Sequence record: OL780484.1
Strand: one strand, 5' to 3'
From: Escherichia phage vB_EcoM-E33
DNA: 64,000 bases
Shown here: positions 40,533 to 47,957 of the stretch, one piece after another
Numbering within the stretch: position 1 is the first letter of the stretch
Layout: each line of letters starts with the position of its first letter
Translations under genes and position numbers: made by a program
The notes under the pieces: model-generated
What the model was told of the DNA's origin: nothing
What the model saw: the letters and a program-made list of their open reading frames with translations, nothing else
The model's database searches: none

Positions 40533-42428
40533 ATGTCCGAACAATTGAATGAGGTATTTGATGGTGATATAAATTTATCTGCTGTCAATTTAAACCCTAA
40601 ACTTAAAGTCCCACAGATTTGGAATATAAAGGCTGAAGGTAACGAGAACCTTGTTGCCCGCATGGTTTCATATACTTCCGAAGGCGATGTAATTCGTCAG
40701 GTTAAGCCTGGTGACAAGTATGTTCATGTCGTTTTAATGAGCCTATCGGCTAAAGGTTCTCCTGCCGAACTCAAAGGTGGATTAGGTACCAATCCTATTT
40801 CCGCTATTCGTTCTATATTTGATATCGTCTATGAACAGGTCAAGGCCCTTCGTATGGACGCTGTTATGTTCCGTTTTCCTACCAAGAAAATGAAAGGGCA
40901 GGAAAAAGCTATACAGAGGGTATTGGCTAAATTAATAGCCTCTAGAGCAGGCGGACAGTTTAAAGTTCTTGATGCCTTGTATCAATTCACCGGTAAGCAT
41001 TCGTATGTTTTTATCTATCGTAAAAATAAAAATATAGAATCTATAAATGGTATTCCTAATATTAATTTAGAATTGTATACTAAAGTCGAATCTGAAGTCG
41101 GTGACGTGTATGTTTCAAAGAAAACAGGCGAAGATGTTACCAAACTAGAAGCTATAGCTAAGTCCATAGACGAAATAGAAAAATCACGTTCTGATAAAAC
41201 TGTTATAACCAAAACAAAGGTTTCTAAACGTGCTGCTATCAATGCTTTATATCCTACAGCAGAGCCTACAGGATTGAGTAAATTTTCGGCAGAGCACAAA
41301 AAAGCTTATGCAGATTATTCTGCTACTAGTTCCGTTCATTCTTCTGAAGATTCTAAAGAAAGCCAAATAGCTTTAGCCAGTAATAAAATATTAAAAGACA
41401 CCTCTAAAGAAATGGCAGAATATTTGGATTATATTTTTAACGGTGTTAATCCATCATTTGAAGTAGACGAGCGCAAACTTAAACTAATTGCTGATATAAA
41501 GTTTGCTTTAGAGGCATCAGATTCTTTAGATAAATCTAATAGTGTCATAGAGGCTTTAAAATCAGGTAAATCTCATGTAGACATTCTTAGACTAGTCGCT
41601 GCGGCCCTTTTAGATGATTCAGTTAAAGGTACTTGGGCTAGAGAATCTAAAATCAAGGAAGTAATAAAATCCTTAGTAGCAGTTTATACAAAATCTATCC
41701 AACCATTGTTTAAGATATCTGATAATCCTAATTTATCCAAACCTCAAGAAGAGGCAGTCAAAAAGTATACTCGTGGCGGCTACAACCATATAAACAACTT
41801 TTTGCTAGGTAAAACAGATACCACCGATGAAATGATAAAAATGATGGGTGAGTTGGATTCTACATTTGAAAATGGTACAAAACTTCCTAAAGGAACCATA
41901 GTGTATCGTTCTCAGATAATGCCTACCGAAATGGCTTTGAATTCTATAAAACATAAGGTGATGTATCTTCCTATTTTTGCATCAACTTCATTGGCTCCTA
42001 ATATTTTCGGTGAAATGGGTCATGCTCAATCCAACTTAGACCCTGAAGCTCTTTCTAGCGATATAGATAGTAATCTTGAAGACACCATTAAAAGTGCGAC
42101 CGGAAGTGCTAGAGATACCATTAAGCTAGGGTTAATTATTAAAGGTGCTGATAAAATTAAGGTTATTGTGCCCGGTGACTTGGCTAATTGGTCTACAGAA
42201 ACCGAAGTAATTCTTCCTCGTGGGGTTATGCTTAAGATTAATAAAGTATACGGTGCTTCCAAGGGACCTATGGGTTCAATTGGTAAATATGTTTTAGTGG
42301 AATGTGAAGTTGTAGCTACCGAGCAAATCACAGAGGAAAATTCATATAGCACCGGATTCTCGTTTGGAAATTATGATAGAATTATGTATGAAGATTCTAT
42401 GGAAAAATTAGCAAATTTATTTAAATAG
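40533..42428 (+). CDS. Alt-like ADP-ribosyltransferase paralog 1 (631 aa)
   Basis: about 230 aa N-terminus shared with the two downstream ORFs; C-terminal YRSQ ... ASTSL ... ETEVILPRG (R / S-x-S / E-x-E ART triad). Confidence 0.7.
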   Translation: MSEQLNEVFDGDINLSAVNLNPKLKVPQIWNIKAEGNENLVARMVSYTSEGDVIRQVKPGDKYVHVVLMSLSAKGSPAELKGGLGTNPISAIRSIFDIVYEQVKALRMDAVMFRFPTKKMKGQEKAIQRVLAKLIASRAGGQFKVLDALYQFTGKHSYVFIYRKNKNIESINGIPNINLELYTKVESEVGDVYVSKKTGEDVTKLEAIAKSIDEIEKSRSDKTVITKTKVSKRAAINALYPTAEPTGLSKFSAEHKKAYADYSATSSVHSSEDSKESQIALASNKILKDTSKEMAEYLDYIFNGVNPSFEVDERKLKLIADIKFALEASDSLDKSNSVIEALKSGKSHVDILRLVAAALLDDSVKGTWARESKIKEVIKSLVAVYTKSIQPLFKISDNPNLSKPQEEAVKKYTRGGYNHINNFLLGKTDTTDEMIKMMGELDSTFENGTKLPKGTIVYRSQIMPTEMALNSIKHKVMYLPIFASTSLAPNIFGEMGHAQSNLDPEALSSDIDSNLEDTIKSATGSARDTIKLGLIIKGADKIKVIVPGDLANWSTETEVILPRGVMLKINKVYGASKGPMGSIGKYVLVECEVVATEQITEENSYSTGFSFGNYDRIMYEDSMEKLANLFK

Positions 42429-42436
42429 GATAGATT

Positions 42437-44518
42437 ATGACCCAATTAAATGAAGTGTTCGAGTCCGAAGGTACACTGCCTGTTGTGAACTTGAACCCAA
42501 AACTTAAAGTACCTCAGATTTGGAAGATTGGAGACGCGGAGTCTCAGTTAGTAGCACGTATGGTATCCTATGCTTCTGAAGGCGATGCTATTAAACAGGT
42601 TAAGATGGGTGATAAATATGCCCACGTTATCCTTATGAGCCTTTCAGCTAAAGGTACTCCAGCAGAACTTAAAGGTGGCTTAGGCCCTACTCCTATTGAT
42701 GCTATTAATACCATTTTCGACGTAGTATTCGAACAGGTTAAAAAGCTTCGTATGGATGCCGTGATGTTCCGTTTCCCTACTAAGAAAATGAAAGGTCAAG
42801 GCCCTATCGTTCAACGGATTATCCAACGTTTGGTAGCACAGAAAACAGGTGGACGTTTTAAAGTAGTTCCGGCTATGTACCAATTTACCGGTAAACATAC
42901 TTACATCCTGGTAGTTCGTAAACAAGCTGATATAGAAGATATCAAAGGTATGCCTGGAATTAATGCTGAATTGTATACTAAGGTAGATTCTGATGTCGGT
43001 GAAGTTTATATTTCTAAAAAAGAAGGCGTGCAGGTTACTAAAGAAACTGCTATCGCCGGTAGTATTGCTAAGGTTGAAGAACGTCGCACTGATAAAATGG
43101 TTATAACCAAGACTAAGATTTCTCGACGTGCTATTGCAGCAAGTCAATCGTTAGAATCTTATCGTAATGAAAGTGAGCTGTTTAAGAAATATGAAGCTAC
43201 TGCAGTAGATTTTAATAAACCGGCAACAGTTCCATTAATCCCTGAGGCTCAGGAAATGGTTACTAATAACAATTCTCCTGCGGCTAAAAATAAGGTTGCT
43301 AATATAGTGGCTGAAGGCACTGCTGAAGAATTGCATTACGATTATAAAATGTTCCCACTTCACGGTATTGGCGAAATCCAAGAGAAAATTAAAGAGAAAA
43401 TTCTTACAGCAATAAAAAACGAACCTTTGACATCTGTTAAAGCTCTAGAAAAATATGCCTCTGCTATTAATACCATTTTCGAAGAATATAAAGGCGAGTG
43501 GCTGGCTATCCATAACAGAACTCGTAAAGGCCAACCTGATGACCTTTGGAACGAATTGACAGAGGCCAAGTGGAAAGCAGCCAAGACTAAGTTCATTAAA
43601 AAACGCGTGTATAGTTTTGCTGGTGTGGGTGGTGGTATTATGGTTGATATTACTATTGCTCGTGAAGGTTCTAAATATACTCCATCACAAAAGCGTGGTA
43701 TCAGAGAATATTGTGGTTCAGGATATACAGACATAAATAATCTTCTTTTAGGACGTTATAATCCTCAGAACTATGAGGTTATGAGCGAAAAAGATATCGA
43801 ATCCGCTGTAAATAATTTAGATTCAGCTTTTGAAAATGGTGACCGTATACCGGAAGGCATTACAGTTTATCGTGCCCAGAGTATGACTGCTCCTATATAC
43901 GAAGCACTAGTTAAAAATAAAGTGTTTTATTTTAGAAATTTTGTATCTACTTCTTTAACTCCTATAATTTTCGGACGTTTTGGTGTTACGCACGCTGGTA
44001 TTGGTCTTTTAGAACCGGAAGTTCGCAACGAATTGACAGTTGATAAAAATGAAGAAGGAATAACTATTAATCCTAATGAAATAAGAGCATATAAAGAAAA
44101 TCCTGATTATGTTAAAGTTCAAATAGGATGGGCTATTGATGGGGCCCATAAAGTTAATGTCGTATATCCAGGAAATCTCGGAATAGCAACTGAAGCCGAA
44201 GTTATTCTACCGCGTGGATTAATGGTCAAAGTTAATAAAATAACAGATGCTTCTAATAATGATGGAACAACATCTAGTAATACAAAACTCATTCAAGCTG
44301 AAGTTATGACAACAGATGAGCTTCAAGAATCTGTGGTATATGATGGTGATGTACTAATGGAAACCGGCGAGTTGGTCGTATATCAAGATGACTTCGATAC
44401 TTCCGAAAGCCCCTTATCTTTTGATTCATTTGTTAAATCTACACGGTTTGATGTACTGCCTCTTTTGGCTTCATGCATAGACCTCTATGACATCCCAGAA
44501 AAATTCATCCAAGGGTAA
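42437..44518 (+). CDS. alt: Alt ADP-ribosyltransferase (693 aa), likely the T4 alt ortholog
   Basis: C-terminal GITVYRAQSMTAPIYEALVKNKVFYFRNFVSTSL and EAEVILPRGLMVKVNKITDAS match my recollection of T4 Alt. Confidence 0.7.
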   Translation: MTQLNEVFESEGTLPVVNLNPKLKVPQIWKIGDAESQLVARMVSYASEGDAIKQVKMGDKYAHVILMSLSAKGTPAELKGGLGPTPIDAINTIFDVVFEQVKKLRMDAVMFRFPTKKMKGQGPIVQRIIQRLVAQKTGGRFKVVPAMYQFTGKHTYILVVRKQADIEDIKGMPGINAELYTKVDSDVGEVYISKKEGVQVTKETAIAGSIAKVEERRTDKMVITKTKISRRAIAASQSLESYRNESELFKKYEATAVDFNKPATVPLIPEAQEMVTNNNSPAAKNKVANIVAEGTAEELHYDYKMFPLHGIGEIQEKIKEKILTAIKNEPLTSVKALEKYASAINTIFEEYKGEWLAIHNRTRKGQPDDLWNELTEAKWKAAKTKFIKKRVYSFAGVGGGIMVDITIAREGSKYTPSQKRGIREYCGSGYTDINNLLLGRYNPQNYEVMSEKDIESAVNNLDSAFENGDRIPEGITVYRAQSMTAPIYEALVKNKVFYFRNFVSTSLTPIIFGRFGVTHAGIGLLEPEVRNELTVDKNEEGITINPNEIRAYKENPDYVKVQIGWAIDGAHKVNVVYPGNLGIATEAEVILPRGLMVKVNKITDASNNDGTTSSNTKLIQAEVMTTDELQESVVYDGDVLMETGELVVYQDDFDTSESPLSFDSFVKSTRFDVLPLLASCIDLYDIPEKFIQG

Positions 44519-44521
44519 ATA

Positions 44522-46645
44522 ATGGAAAATTTAAACGAAGTTTTTGATAGTGATTCCGCTAAAAACTATCCAGTAACAAATCTTAAACCGGGTTCCGGTA
44601 TTCCACAGATTTTCTCTATCCAAGCGCCAGGTAACGATAACCTGGTTGCTCGTATGGTATCTTATGCGTCTGAAGGCGATGCTATTAAAATGGTTAAGCC
44701 AGGCGATAAGTACGTCCATGTCATCCTAATGAGTTTATCTGCTAAAGGCGCCCCGGCAGAACTCAAGGGTGGTTTGGGTACCGATCCACTCGGTACACTG
44801 AACACCATTTTCGATACCATATATGAACAAATAAACAAACTTAAAATGGACGCGGTTTTGTTCCGTTTCCCTACTAAGAAAATGAAAGGTAAAGGTCCTA
44901 CCGTTCAGCGCGTATTAGCTCGCTTGGCTATGGCTCGTACCGGTGGTAAGTTTAAAGTTGTTGACGACATGTTCCAATTCAGCGGAAAACATACCTACGT
45001 TCTTTTAGTACGTCGTGGTGCTAATATTGAAGATATCAAGGGTATGCCTGAAATTAATGCCGATCTTTATACTAAAGTTGAGTCTAAAGTTGGCGAAGTG
45101 TATGTTTCTAAGAAAACCGGCCAGGCTGTAAGTAAGGTCGAAGCCGTAGCGGCATCTATTGCACAAGTTGAAGAGAAACGTACTGATAAGGCTGTCATTA
45201 CTCGTACTAAGATTTCGCGTCGTATGGCAGCGGCGGCGCAGTATTCTACTGCTGAGCCTGAAACTTTGTCCCCTAAAGAATTGCAGGTTTATAACGAGTT
45301 TGAAGCTTCTGTACCGGTTCACACGGCTGAAGGCCCTGAGAATGAAGGTATTGAACAGATTAGTCAGAACTTTAAAAAAGGTGCTATTACCAAAATGCGC
45401 CAGGCTTCTCAGTTTAAATCTAAGAGCGAGGACCTTGCCAACTTTAGATACACTATTGCTCTCACACACGCTTTAATGACTGATAGTAAATTTAAACTAA
45501 ATTATGCTAATAGAGATAAACAAGGGTTTGAAATTTACTCTAATAATATGGCATTTTTTAATACAGAAGTCGATAGACTTTTAAGTGGCCTTTCGCAAAT
45601 CAATACAACCAATAGTCTGGATATTATTAAGAAAATTGTTAATAACCTGAGTACCCGTTTTAAGGGTTCCCCTTCAGAGAAAGCATCTAGAATTGCTTTC
45701 GCTATGGAAGCCGTTTATAAACTGGTTAACGATTCTATTAGTGATGCATATGCTTATTCAGGCGAGCTCATTAAACCTAAGGACCTAACCAAAGACGAAA
45801 GCAATGCTATTATTGAATATTGCGCGGCTGAATATGCTCCTATGAACTTATTCCTTTTAGGTAAACCTGAATCCGAAAACAATACAACGGCTATTAAATT
45901 GATTAAGGATTTAGACTCGGCATTTACTAAGGGTATTAAACTTCCTAAGGGTACTATTTTGTATCGTGGTCAGGATTTGCCATACAAAATTCTGCGCCAT
46001 AATATCGATAACAAAACATTTTACTTTAAGAACTTTGTGTCAGCCTCACTAAAACCTAACATCTTTGGTGAATTTGGTAAAAATTATATGGCCCTCGACA
46101 ACCAAGCCGTTTTTGTTGGCGGTGAAGGTTCTTTGTCCTCAGCTGATGAGTTGTTTAAATTGGCTAGTGGTAGTTCATCTGATGTGGGTGAAGTCGATGA
46201 CGAAGAGGTAGAATGGGAAGAAGACGAGTTCGGTAATCCAATTGCACCTGAAGGTCCTGCGGATAGAATTGCTGAAATTGGTATGGTTATTCGAGGTGCT
46301 GAAGCAGTTAAAGTTATCGCTCCTGGTGACCTTACAGAATATGCCGAAGAAGCAGAAATTATCCTTCCGCGTGGATTATTGTTGAAGGTTGATAAAGTAG
46401 CGGCTTTTGCCATGAATGATAGAGTATCTCACAAATACCTTATGGAAGCTACCGTAACGCCTCCTTCAGAGCTCAGCGAATCTGTTTACGATGGCGACCA
46501 TTTGATGGAAACTGGTGAAGTTCGCCTGATGGATGGATTCAGTCAATTCTTGGTTAATGAATCCGTTTCTGAAAGCAACGAAGCTATGGAAATCCTTGCC
46601 GCGTCTTTGGATATCTCTTCTTTATCAAATAAATTCAAAATGTAG
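44522..46645 (+). CDS. Alt-like ADP-ribosyltransferase paralog 3 (707 aa) with an acidic insertion
   Basis: shared N-terminal module; YRGQ ... SASL ... EAEIILPRG; acidic segment DVGEVDDEEVEWEEDEFGN. Confidence 0.7.
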   Translation: MENLNEVFDSDSAKNYPVTNLKPGSGIPQIFSIQAPGNDNLVARMVSYASEGDAIKMVKPGDKYVHVILMSLSAKGAPAELKGGLGTDPLGTLNTIFDTIYEQINKLKMDAVLFRFPTKKMKGKGPTVQRVLARLAMARTGGKFKVVDDMFQFSGKHTYVLLVRRGANIEDIKGMPEINADLYTKVESKVGEVYVSKKTGQAVSKVEAVAASIAQVEEKRTDKAVITRTKISRRMAAAAQYSTAEPETLSPKELQVYNEFEASVPVHTAEGPENEGIEQISQNFKKGAITKMRQASQFKSKSEDLANFRYTIALTHALMTDSKFKLNYANRDKQGFEIYSNNMAFFNTEVDRLLSGLSQINTTNSLDIIKKIVNNLSTRFKGSPSEKASRIAFAMEAVYKLVNDSISDAYAYSGELIKPKDLTKDESNAIIEYCAAEYAPMNLFLLGKPESENNTTAIKLIKDLDSAFTKGIKLPKGTILYRGQDLPYKILRHNIDNKTFYFKNFVSASLKPNIFGEFGKNYMALDNQAVFVGGEGSLSSADELFKLASGSSSDVGEVDDEEVEWEEDEFGNPIAPEGPADRIAEIGMVIRGAEAVKVIAPGDLTEYAEEAEIILPRGLLLKVDKVAAFAMNDRVSHKYLMEATVTPPSELSESVYDGDHLMETGEVRLMDGFSQFLVNESVSESNEAMEILAASLDISSLSNKFKM

Positions 46646-46674
46646 TTTACAACACCACAAGGATGTGGTACTAT
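46645..46674 (+). promoter_or_regulatory. T4-type early promoter (GTTTACA, 17 nt, TACTAT), spacer inverted repeat ccaca/tgtgg
   Basis: motif read from sequence. Confidence 0.5.
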
Positions 46675-46702
46675 TACCTTACACAAACATGAGGAGAACA
46701 TT

Positions 46703-46993
46703 ATGAAATCTGCATTCCGTTTTAATGGTCAAGAACTGGTAGTTGAAAACGTTATCCCTGCTTCTGAAGAGTTTGACAGTGCAGTGGGTAATGAATTACG
46801 TCGAGTTTTCGGTGAAGACAAACAGTTTGATATCCGACCTGTTGAGAATTTTTCTTATCCAGAACAAACCGAAAACATTTTTAACGGTGTAGTGACAGGA
46901 CAACTCGAATCCGAAGCTCCTATTTCGGTTACGGTGTTTGTTAAAAAGCAACCACTAATGACCACAGCAGGTTTCATTTCGTTCCGTAAATAA
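46703..46993 (+). CDS. hypothetical protein, 96 aa, in its own promoter-to-terminator unit
   Basis: ORF track; RBS GAGGAGAACATT. Confidence 0.55.
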   Translation: MKSAFRFNGQELVVENVIPASEEFDSAVGNELRRVFGEDKQFDIRPVENFSYPEQTENIFNGVVTGQLESEAPISVTVFVKKQPLMTTAGFISFRK

Positions 46994-47002
46994 ACCCCTA
47001 AA

Positions 47003-47026
47003 GGAGAGCATATGCTCTCCTTTTTT
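47003..47026 (+). terminator. intrinsic terminator (palindrome ggagagcatatgctctcc plus TTTTTT) between convergent units
   Basis: perfect 18-nt palindrome plus T-run. Confidence 0.65.
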
Positions 47027-47027
47027 G

Positions 47028-47957
47028 TTATAACAACCTCGATATTCCACTATTAACCAATCCTGTTAATCCACTAGAAGCTCCTGAAAGTCGGCTTAAT
47101 TTAGCTACTGAAGAACTCAGGGAATTGCTCTCACTTATACCCGCCACGCCTTTAAGGACTTTATCTTCCAACCATTCATAAGCAGCTTGTTTGCCAACTG
47201 CACCAGTCTGTACACTTCTATAAGCAAATGTAACATCAAATGAAGCAATTTGGTTATCACCGTCGTAAGATAATTCCGGGGAAGATACGCTCATTGGAAC
47301 GCAACCATTAAGCATTACTACCGTATGTGGTAATCCATTACGGGAATGAAGGTTGACTTGAATGTCAGCTTCAACATCCTCCGGTAATGCTCTTAATTGT
47401 GTAATAGGGTCTTGAACACTATTGACCCAATCATTAAAAGCACGGTAGTTAGCAGCTTCAGAATCCATACGGAAGCTTAATACTAATGGAGAATATTCTC
47501 TTCCGGTAATTTTGATGTTAGGTGAGTTGTGGTTCAAATCCATTTCATAGTTCAAAGTATTATCCGGGATTTTAACGGCGTGGACTAAAAGACCTGCCGT
47601 AGGATAGGCCATATTGAAAAAATCCATCAGATATGTACCTACTTCAAACTCTCCTAGTAAGCTCTGCACAACCCTGGATGACATAGCTCCAATCAAATAT
47701 TTACTTATGCCTGACTTACGAATCAACTTCTGAGTGCCCGCTGTCACTAATGTCGTAACACCTTGGGTCAACTCTCCTTGTGTAATACCAAACAAATCGC
47801 TATTCAATGGGATATTGTTAAATAAAGCTCCACCGAACTGGTCGAGGAGCGTCTGAGATTTAGAAGAAGGAACTGTGGCAAATACCACACTAAACAGGTT
47901 ATTCCTTTGTAGGTCAATATTAATTGCCTGATTCTGAAATTCTTGTAAAGTATACAT
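47028..47957 (-). CDS. 54: gp54 baseplate tail tube initiator
   Basis: 309 aa; collinear similarity to remembered T4 gp54 (FQRNN-FS-VFAT, LIRKSG-SKYLIGAMS, DVEADIQVNLHSRNGLPHT). Confidence 0.9.
   Translation of the reverse strand: MYTLQEFQNQAINIDLQRNNLFSVVFATVPSSKSQTLLDQFGGALFNNIPLNSDLFGITQGELTQGVTTLVTAGTQKLIRKSGISKYLIGAMSSRVVQSLLGEFEVGTYLMDFFNMAYPTAGLLVHAVKIPDNTLNYEMDLNHNSPNIKITGREYSPLVLSFRMDSEAANYRAFNDWVNSVQDPITQLRALPEDVEADIQVNLHSRNGLPHTVVMLNGCVPMSVSSPELSYDGDNQIASFDVTFAYRSVQTGAVGKQAAYEWLEDKVLKGVAGISESNSLSSSVAKLSRLSGASSGLTGLVNSGISRLL

Follow-up and report, generated by a model that had tools for sequence, protein, structure and literature searches.

The T-even gene alt.-3 and its predicted immediate-early transcription unit at the alt/gene 54 junction of a Dhakavirus

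The 96-aa open reading frame (ORF) located between the last alt gene and baseplate gene 54 of Escherichia phage vB_EcoM-E33 is very probably the Dhakavirus ortholog of T4 alt.-3, furnished with an immediate-early transcription unit of its own. We analyzed a stretch of 64,000 nt of this genome (OL780484.1), referred to as the window in the following; the genome belongs to the genus Dhakavirus and shows 99.4% identity with phage WG01. The alt.-3 ortholog is a small, early T-even gene (DUF5498) that has already been catalogued and is not a new discovery, and the discovery value of the locus is correspondingly small. No evidence was encountered that contradicts either the identity of the gene or the anatomy of its transcription unit. 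This study establishes which sequence elements are present, how far they are conserved, and the orthology of the gene; the expression class, dispensability and escape phenotype of the T4 gene were determined by others. The features of the locus are listed in Table 1.

Table 1. Features of the alt.-3 locus, with positions given in the window
Feature	Position	Strand	Remarks
Third tandem Alt ADP-ribosyltransferase copy	44522–46645	+	ORF list, Pfam ADPrib_exo_Tox, WG01 annotation
−35 element of T4-type early promoter, GTTTACA	46645–46651	+	Hexamer TTTACA at 46646–46651
Extended −10 (TGg at 46666–46668) and hexamer TACTAT (46669–46674)	46666–46674	+	17 nt past the −35 element
Shine-Dalgarno sequence GAGGAG	46691–46696	+	6 nt before the ATG at 46703
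alt.-3 ortholog	46703–46993	+	96 aa, 10.8 kDa, pI 4.8
Predicted intrinsic terminator hairpin	47000–47026	.	10-bp stem, 4-nt loop ATAT, flanked by AAA and T6
Gene 54, baseplate tail-tube initiator	47028–47957	−	Convergent with alt.-3

The Pfam profile DUF5498 (PF17602) matches the ORF with 116.7 bits (gathering cutoff 27, E = 6.7e-34) and covers it completely, residues 1–96 aligning with profile positions 1–96; a match to phrog_1739 was obtained with E = 2.6e-42. T4 Alt.-3 (T4p197, UniProt P39493) also consists of 96 aa, is 58% identical to the window protein over the full length, and is encoded on the same strand at the equivalent site, with alt or what remains of it on one side and gene 54 on the other. 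In the alignment, protein identities between the window protein and orthologs from other genera range from 27 to 58%. An N-terminal MKSxxRxNGxE motif and a C-terminal (P)AFxxFRK motif are conserved throughout the family, which spans approximately 92–114 aa; the window protein carries both motifs and falls within this length range. Judged by the dN/dS ratio of 0.04 between the window gene and that of IME08, alt.-3 is under strong purifying selection. The AF2 model of the protein is compact and confident (pLDDT 92.4) with the predicted fold β-β-α-β-α-β-β.

This predicted fold is without relatives among solved or annotated structures. Neither the sequence nor the family profile of Alt.-3 matched an entry in the PDB, NCBIfam and PADLOC gave no match either, and no sequence or structural similarity to proteins of known function was found. 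An exhaustive HMM search of 1.84 billion representatives returned 22 matches, about 18 of which are genuine clusters. Two long matches (P0028 and P0033) turned out on inspection to be repetitive proteins and were regarded as spurious, and the other two long matches (P0037 and P0038) are probably spurious, too. All relatives in BFVD are proteins of T4-like phages, a word-indexed protein search gave close relatives only, and the Alt.-3 family is restricted to T4-like phages. The preliminary description of this locus had listed the product as being of unknown function; this assessment holds, as homology and structure searches provided a family and orthologs but no functional relative.

The gene occupies a conserved slot with the order ligase–alt.1–alt(n)–alt.-3→ ←54–48–29. 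We found alt.-3 at this site in Tequatro-, Mosig-, Dhaka-, Marfa-, Kanagawa-, Winkler-, Gelderland-, Kagamiyama-, Karam- and Jiaodavirus, that is in 10/10 Tevenvirinae-type genera sampled. Gene order in T4T, IME08, WG01 and eight other genera matches that of the window, and alt.-3 is co-oriented with alt. The proposal of a self-contained unit at the junction of two convergent blocks is substantiated: in the window, the unit is bordered by the final one of three tandem alt copies on one side and by gene 54 on the other. T4 differs in that the degenerate alt.-1 and alt.-2, remnants of a second alt copy according to an annotation note, precede alt.-3, whereas the window contains a third intact alt.

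The promoter fits the T4 early type with respect to its TTTACA hexamer, the 17-nt spacer, the TG in front of the −10 element and TACTAT; it scores 9/12 in a sigma-70 scan and has an extended −10 TG. GTTTACA takes its first G from the third alt copy, whose stop codon (46643–46645) ends with that base, and transcription would be expected to start near position 46681. A generic sigma-70 scan of the window revealed no enrichment, with 10 sites found and 13.4 expected. Since the generic sigma-70 and terminator scans were not enriched over shuffled sequences, the argument rests on the count of a phage-specific motif and on conservation across genera. The motif GTTTAC-N16–19-TAYWRT occurs 11 times in the window compared to 0.5 expected occurrences, exclusively on the + strand and including the site upstream of alt.-3. 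For conservation we compared 11 genomes from 10 genera, among them the window and IME08 as a further Dhakavirus. GTTTAC is invariant in 11/11 genomes, TAYWRT is present at equal spacing in the orthologous loci, and every locus compared has TGAGGA ahead of the ATG, so that the −10 element and the Shine-Dalgarno sequence are likewise preserved upstream of the ortholog. These data confirm the early promoter at 46645–46674, with its coordinates, as well as the 96-aa ORF with a strong Shine-Dalgarno sequence, both of which had been described before.

T4 early promoters are composed of UP, −35, TGn and −10 elements together with extra consensus regions (PMC2988021). The last codons of the third alt copy (...NKFKM followed by the stop) form the A/T-rich stretch just 5′ of the −35 element, and the same KFKM-stop/GTTTACA junction is found at T4 alt.-2. 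This stretch (46620–46644, CTTTATCAAATAAATTCAAAATGTA), which is part of the alt coding sequence, may represent a UP element. A hairpin in the promoter spacer (46656–46669) was considered as an RNA element or alt terminator and rejected, as its fold is unremarkable against shuffles (z = −0.85) and no U-run follows. The purine patch and RTGn features are also present in other early promoters of the window, and the spacer region is therefore probably part of the early-promoter consensus. The late promoter motif TATAAATA did not occur in the vicinity of the unit, and its count in the window showed no enrichment.

At the downstream end, a perfect 18-nt palindrome, GGAGAGCATATGCTCTCC, spans 47003–47020 and extends to a 10-bp stem over 47000–47023. 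The T6 run ends at 47026, 1 nt away from the stop codon of gene 54 (47028–47030). A palindromic terminator had been reported at 47003–47026, and this span is recovered as the palindrome plus the T-run. The + strand RNA folds with −16.3 kcal/mol (z = −6.5 compared to shuffles). The same hairpin forms on the − strand, where it is followed by the tail UUUAGGGG (z = −3.6), although the terminator scan did not list it on that strand. In fPS-90 and PhAPEC2 a terminator is annotated on both strands at this junction. A hairpin follows the alt.-3 stop codon in 11/11 genomes with energies between −12.8 and −21.0 kcal/mol and differing stem sequences; orthologous terminators were folded singly, and RNAalifold covariation counts are not meaningful due to unequal stems and an alignment out of register. 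The hairpin is the predicted junction terminator serving both the early unit on the + strand and, from the opposite side, the late operon of gene 54. Muldoon has no alt.-3, yet a terminator is annotated between its alt and gene 54. A match of Rfam STnc390 over the hairpin (18.6 bits with a threshold of 50, E = 0.45) was treated as chance.

The T4 locus shares this layout. Its alt.-3 promoter consists of GTTTACA, a 17-nt spacer and TAnnnT and begins on the upstream stop codon, the ribosome-binding site is TGAGGA, and the hairpin terminator is common to gene 54. Differences concern the terminator stem (GGAGAGC in the window, GGGGACC in T4), the T-run, which is better in the window, and the Shine-Dalgarno sequence, which contains GGAG in the window compared to GAGGAA in T4. 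In T4, alt.-3 yields an early RNA and an early protein, the latter detected by proteomics, whereas alt and alt.-1/-2 RNA belong to the middle class and the Alt protein is late (PMC9697503 supplements). Autonomous expression, as proposed in the preliminary description, fits this separation from the upstream genes and the conservation of the promoter across genera; for the window gene, the conserved early promoter points to early expression. In the T4 omics data, gene 54 RNA is classed as 'early' and its protein as late. Deletion of T4 alt.-3 is viable (PMC11618068), and a CRISPRi-ART knock-down was classed 'Not Fit', meaning no fitness cost (PMC11879866 supplement). The gene alt.-3 is one of many conserved, dispensable T4 early genes, here with a fold without relatives: it is conserved, yet not an essential 'core' gene. 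It already has one genetic link to an anti-phage system, CmdTAC: T4 mutants with C-terminal read-through of Alt.-3 escape this defence by gain of function, while wild-type Alt.-3 neither triggers nor inhibits CmdTAC (PMC11618068).

The unit had also been interpreted as a moron, i.e. a recent, horizontally mobile promoter–gene–terminator cassette that is variably present among close relatives, and this interpretation did not withstand comparison with other phages. Like the morons of temperate (e.g. lambdoid) phages, alt.-3 is a compact promoter–ORF–terminator unit at a block junction with a gene dispensable in the laboratory. However, its terminator is common to the neighbouring operon, and it resides in a strictly lytic phage and belongs to the early programme, with a standard phage early promoter. 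Neither variable presence in close relatives nor a deviant composition was observed: besides the constant position in the sampled genera, tblastn detected Alt.-3 in 846 phage records, with more divergent orthologs in Jiaodavirus; at ≥80% identity there are 83 records for Alt.-3 and 87 for gp54; and the GC content of 0.38–0.40 across the ORF equals that of its flanks (0.38–0.41 in genes 54 and 48). The divergence between genera together with constant flanking genes fits vertical descent, as seen by sequence comparison, and the junction terminator is annotated even where alt.-3 is missing. A moron is therefore highly improbable; what we see is the catalogued T4 alt.-3 ortholog, inherited by T-even phages at exactly this spot and kept under purifying selection. 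Conservation at this position, on which a check for presence or absence in relatives was to decide, is essentially what we found, although the gene is dispensable and absent from distant genera. Among the Straboviridae sampled, Krisch-, Biquarta-, Jiangsu-, Muldoon-, Lazarus- and Pseudotevenvirus lack alt.-3, and in such distant Straboviridae Alt directly adjoins gene 54. An ORF in the same slot of Krischvirus was examined as a divergent homolog and rejected as unrelated, which makes an ancient single insertion plausible. Given the genera without the gene, alt.-3 may have entered the junction once, in the ancestor of the T-even group.

For the alt.-3 unit we propose the following course of events. 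Host sigma-70 RNA polymerase would fire right after DNA injection at the strong T4-type early promoter (GTTTACA, TGn, −10), whose 5′ end lies within the stop codon of the final alt copy. The product would be a monocistronic mRNA of ∼350 nt, whose strong Shine-Dalgarno sequence would drive translation of the acidic 96-aa α/β protein, and transcription would end at the hairpin and T-run, which is predicted to close the convergent operon of late gene 54 as well. During the first minutes of infection Alt.-3 might then act stoichiometrically by binding a host or host-defence protein, as an accessory take-over or counter-defence factor needed on some hosts only. We consider this mode of action possible but tentative; it takes into account that the protein is small and acidic (pI 4.8) with a compact, confidently predicted fold and that its family is limited to T4-like phages. 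Cross-genus comparison of signals, termini and the limits of the distribution could guide a targeted functional study.

Other readings of the ORF differ in how well they agree with these data. The region could be a regulatory spacer instead of a gene, providing a promoter for antisense RNA against gene 54 and a terminator; read-through antisense transcription from the alt.-3 promoter could account for the early RNA and late protein of T4 gene 54. This is effectively refuted by coding selection and by the proteomic detection of the early T4 protein, in addition to the full-length Pfam and PHROG matches, the conserved Shine-Dalgarno sequence and ATG and the confident AF2 fold. A tie to the neighbouring Alt ADP-ribosyltransferases, with Alt.-3 as partner, regulator, antidote or remnant of an alt duplication, is suggested by the fact that alt.-3, wherever present, directly follows alt in the same orientation, and by the T4 neighbours alt.-1 and alt.-2 being known remnants of this kind. 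We regard it as quite improbable: several genera have Alt without Alt.-3, alt.-3 stays single while alt copies vary from 1 to 3, and the late Alt and early Alt.-3 proteins differ in timing in T4. No sequence relation to Alt was detected (hhalign probability 0.06%), and an origin as a remnant of an alt copy was rejected on these grounds.

We also considered a native role for Alt.-3 in modulating Clp-dependent proteolysis of the host, or the stability of toxin–antitoxin and defence systems, the escape alleles exaggerating an existing activity. All CmdTAC escape mutants mapped to alt.-3 alone, and the extended T4 Alt.-3, which has 110 or 117 aa, prevents the antitoxin CmdA from being degraded in a ClpP-dependent manner (PMC11618068 and preprint). 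Early synthesis in T4 and the strongly conserved C-terminus would suit such a role, for which the T4 Lon protease inhibitor PinA is a precedent (PMC11618068 preprint): it belongs to the same phage group, and the only known phenotype of Alt.-3, the CmdTAC-escape alleles, likewise concerns host proteolysis. Alt.-3 itself resembles no protein of known function, and no similarity to known protease adaptors or inhibitors was detected. Moreover, wild-type Alt.-3 had no stabilising effect on CmdA and gave no rescue from CmdTA toxicity, and deletion of alt.-3 left CmdTAC defence unchanged (PMC11618068). The extensions are hydrophobic peptides produced by read-through across the terminator and into gene 54 antisense sequence, and their effect may be purely neomorphic. 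Such a modulator therefore appears unlikely, and we are equally doubtful that wild-type Alt.-3 is a dedicated early counter-defence or host-proteostasis factor acting, for example, on Clp-dependent antitoxin turnover. If it were, the conserved free C-terminus (...FxxFRK) would be functionally critical, and the Dhakavirus allele, like that of T4, would need a single stop-codon mutation to become a 117-aa form escaping CmdTAC; computed read-through of the window alt.-3 stop codon adds TPKGEHMLSFFVITTSIFHY and yields a protein of 117 aa.

The 96-aa ORF between the alt array and gene 54 is the ortholog of the T4 gene alt.-3, and both this orthology and the anatomy of the unit are secure. The protein aligns over its full length with Pfam DUF5498 (PF17602; 116.7 bits, cutoff 27) and also hits phrog_1739 (E = 2.6e-42), and it shares 58% identity with the product of the gene annotated alt.-3 in T4; the name is also used in JS98, IME08 and PG7. 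A tblastn search found it in 846 phage records, full length in every one. The window belongs to Dhakavirus: over positions 46500–47200 its identity is 99.4% with the Escherichia phages WG01, IME281 and LHE83 and 88.7% with IME08. T4 alt.-1 and alt.-2 are annotated as remnants of alt duplication, whereas the alt.-3 ortholog of the window is not such a remnant, and a relationship to Alt itself was rejected (hhalign probability 0.06%). Some database entries list Alt.-3 with 106–107 aa (P0005, P0006, P0010; 6171–6491 in the fetched IME08 locus L001), and the annotated IME08 start lies 30 nt upstream, within the -10 region of the promoter; because the Shine-Dalgarno sequence and the ATG are conserved and the T4 length is reported as 96 aa, we consider these starts mis-annotated. 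The unit is an already known feature, the T-even-type alt.-3 immediate-early unit.

Sequence reading of positions 46400–47300 and ORF listing bore out the promoter, Shine-Dalgarno sequence, ORF and palindromic terminator where the preliminary description had placed them. The first base of GTTTACA is the G of the third alt stop codon. The stem core GGAGAGCATATGCTCTCC (47003–47020) is a perfect 18-nt palindrome, and the hairpin is followed by T6 ending at 47026.

Features of the alt.-3 unit, its neighbours and candidate early promoters
Feature	Position	Strand	Basis or remark
alt copy 1	40533–42428	+	ORF list, 631 aa
alt copy 2	42437–44518	+	ORF list, 693 aa
alt copy 3	44522–46645	+	ORF list, 707 aa; stop TAG 46643–46645
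-35 hexamer TTTACA	46646–46651	+	sequence reading
TGg	46666–46668	+	promoter scan
-10 hexamer TACTAT	46669–46674	+	17 bases after -35
Shine-Dalgarno GAGGAG	46691–46696	+	6 nt 5′ of ATG at 46703
alt.-3 ortholog	46703–46993	+	ORF list, 96 aa
Hairpin, 10-bp stem, 4-nt loop	47000–47023	shared junction	sequence reading
Gene 54 stop codon	47028–47030	- (convergent)	ORF list
GTTTAC-N16–19-TAYWRT matches	526, 1938, 4374, 17900, 21168, 21879, 22168, 30691, 32653, 46645, 62459	+	

A generic sigma-70 scan yielded 10 sites where 13.4 were expected, no excess over shuffled sequence, so evidence for the promoter must come from other tests. The 64-kb window holds 11 matches to the motif GTTTAC-N16–19-TAYWRT, all of them + strand, where 0.5 would be expected; none of the shuffles gave as many, and the site at 46645 is among the 11. 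These sites provide a ready map of candidate early promoters in the window, and the motif fits the account of T4 early promoters as UP, -35, TGn and -10 elements plus further consensus positions (PMC2988021). The terminator hairpin has a folding energy of -16.3 kcal/mol; its z-score is -6.5 for the + strand and -3.6 for the - strand. Within the promoter, the spacer (46656–46669) carries the inverted repeat CCACA-AGGA-TGTGG, with similar sequences in several other genera, and a second early-type promoter (526–555) contains ACACCA-AGGA-TGGTGT; such repeats are probably part of the extra T4-type early consensus (purine patch plus RTGn). The T4 endoribonuclease RegB cuts early mRNAs at GGAG in their ribosome-binding sites; this motif is contained in the alt.-3 Shine-Dalgarno sequence of the window (46693–46696) and of Karamvirus PG7, while most other genera have GAGGAA.

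In order to follow the unit across phages, the locus was fetched from representatives of many genera, and the counts apply to those sampled. The order ligase (30)–alt.1–alt (1–3 copies)–alt.-3→←54–48–29 recurs unchanged in ten genera: Tequatrovirus (T4T, fPS-90), Mosigvirus (APCEc01, PhAPEC2), Dhakavirus (IME08, WG01), Marfavirus, Kanagawavirus, Winklervirus, Gelderlandvirus, Kagamiyamavirus, Karamvirus and Jiaodavirus. All ten carry GTTTAC(A), an equally spaced TAYWRT-type -10 and TGAGGA in the ∼58-nt gap 5′ of the alt.-3 ATG, and, 3′ of the stop codon, a hairpin that folds stably (-12.8 to -21.0 kcal/mol) and whose stem varies among genera (GGAGAGC, GGGGACC, GGGAGAC, GGGAGCC, GGGGCC). The Jiaodavirus protein is beyond the reach of tblastn, yet it is a homolog (hhalign E = 6.8e-6, 88 columns) with the same slot and promoter; this explains most of the difference between the 1397 records positive for gp54 and the 846 positive for Alt.-3. 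In the Biquartavirus, Jiangsuvirus and Muldoonvirus loci alt.-3 is absent and Alt directly adjoins gene 54; it is also absent from the rearranged Lazarusvirus and Pseudotevenvirus loci. Muldoon still has a terminator annotated between alt and gene 54, which assigns the terminator to the convergent junction and not to the ORF. Outside the T-even group the junction takes different cargo.

The Krischvirus ORF in this slot (161 aa, lipoprotein-like) was dismissed as unrelated to alt.-3. In Escherichia phage MIZ4 (Krischvirus; locus L014, 4465–4950) it has a lipoprotein-type signal peptide (…AAFMLTGC), with an extra short ADP-ribosyltransferase gene upstream. In Enterobacter phage PG7 (locus L010, 3289–3320), repeated AAAAT units (TAAAATAAAATAAAATAAAATAAAATAAA) separate the alt.-3 stop codon from the terminator hairpin. 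Intact tandem Alt ADP-ribosyltransferase paralogs number three in the window, two in IME08 and one, plus the decayed remnants alt.-1/alt.-2, in T4: alt copy number is fluid in evolution and the downstream alt.-3 remains single.

The unit had been proposed to be a moron, a reading that is not supported: alt.-3 is fixed in position across the sampled Tevenvirinae-type genera, native in composition and under purifying selection. Compared with IME08, the ORF shows dS = 0.49, dN = 0.02 and dN/dS = 0.04 (0.32 against T4, where dS is saturated), and its GC content of 0.38–0.40 equals that of genes 54 and 48; neither low dN/dS nor native GC is consistent with recent foreign acquisition. Even so, alt.-3 is an accessory and not an essential core gene. 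It probably entered the alt/gene 54 junction once, in an ancestor of the Tevenvirinae-type group.

Autonomous expression, as originally suggested, is upheld. Time-resolved omics of T4 place alt.-3 in the early class for both RNA and protein, alt in the middle class for RNA and the late class for protein, and alt.-1/-2 in the middle class for RNA (PMC9697503), which supports an independent early promoter immediately 5′ of alt.-3. Judging from sequence, host RNA polymerase would transcribe the unit from its strong early promoter, and transcription would end at the junction terminator common to the late gene 54 operon. T4 gene 54 RNA is classed as 'early' and its protein as late (PMC9697503); transcripts that start at the alt.-3 early promoter and run past the terminator, weaker in T4, into the antisense strand of gene 54 might account for the early class.

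The window protein (10.8 kDa, pI 4.8) gave a confident AlphaFold2 model from an 11-sequence alignment (pLDDT 92.4, pTM 0.80) with the predicted order beta-beta-alpha-beta-alpha-beta-beta. Foldseek with this model found nothing in the PDB below E = 0.2, PDB (sequence and profile), NCBIfam and PADLOC searches returned no matches, and BFVD matches were uncharacterised T4-like phage proteins only, the distant ones including Yersinia TG1 and Morganella MP1. When 1.84 billion representatives were searched exhaustively with a profile, only ∼18 genuine clusters emerged; most are 92–114 aa long, and a few are shorter fragments. In the family alignment, conservation is strongest at the N-terminal MKSxxRxNGxE, in a GxxE(G/S)ExP loop and at the C-terminal (P)AFxxFRK. 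These homology and structure searches gave no characterised relative, in keeping with the preliminary description, which assigned the unit no function.

A full-text literature search found alt.-3 discussed only in the study of CmdTAC, a toxin-antitoxin-chaperone anti-phage system. All T4 escapers carry a frameshift or stop-codon mutation that lengthens the 96-aa Alt.-3 to 110 or 117 aa, and the extended protein protects the antitoxin CmdA from ClpP-dependent degradation; wild-type Alt.-3 has no activating or inhibiting effect on CmdTAC, and T4 with nearly the whole gene deleted is viable and does not escape (PMC11618068 and preprint). In CRISPRi-ART, alt.-3 knock-down was classed as 'Not Fit', that is, without fitness cost (PMC11879866). 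Our best, low-confidence proposal is that Alt.-3, a small, early, dispensable and acidic protein, may bind a component of the host or of its defences; a role in Clp proteolysis, suggested by the neomorphic alleles only, is improbable. The translated T4 read-through frame is exactly 117 aa and the frameshift product ∼110 aa. Loss of the alt.-3 stop codon in the window would add 21 residues (46991–47053) and likewise give 117 aa, the length of the T4 escape allele; the terminator and the strand antisense to the 3′ end of gene 54 would supply the codons for the tail after the stop-replacing residue, TPKGEHMLSFFVITTSIFHY.
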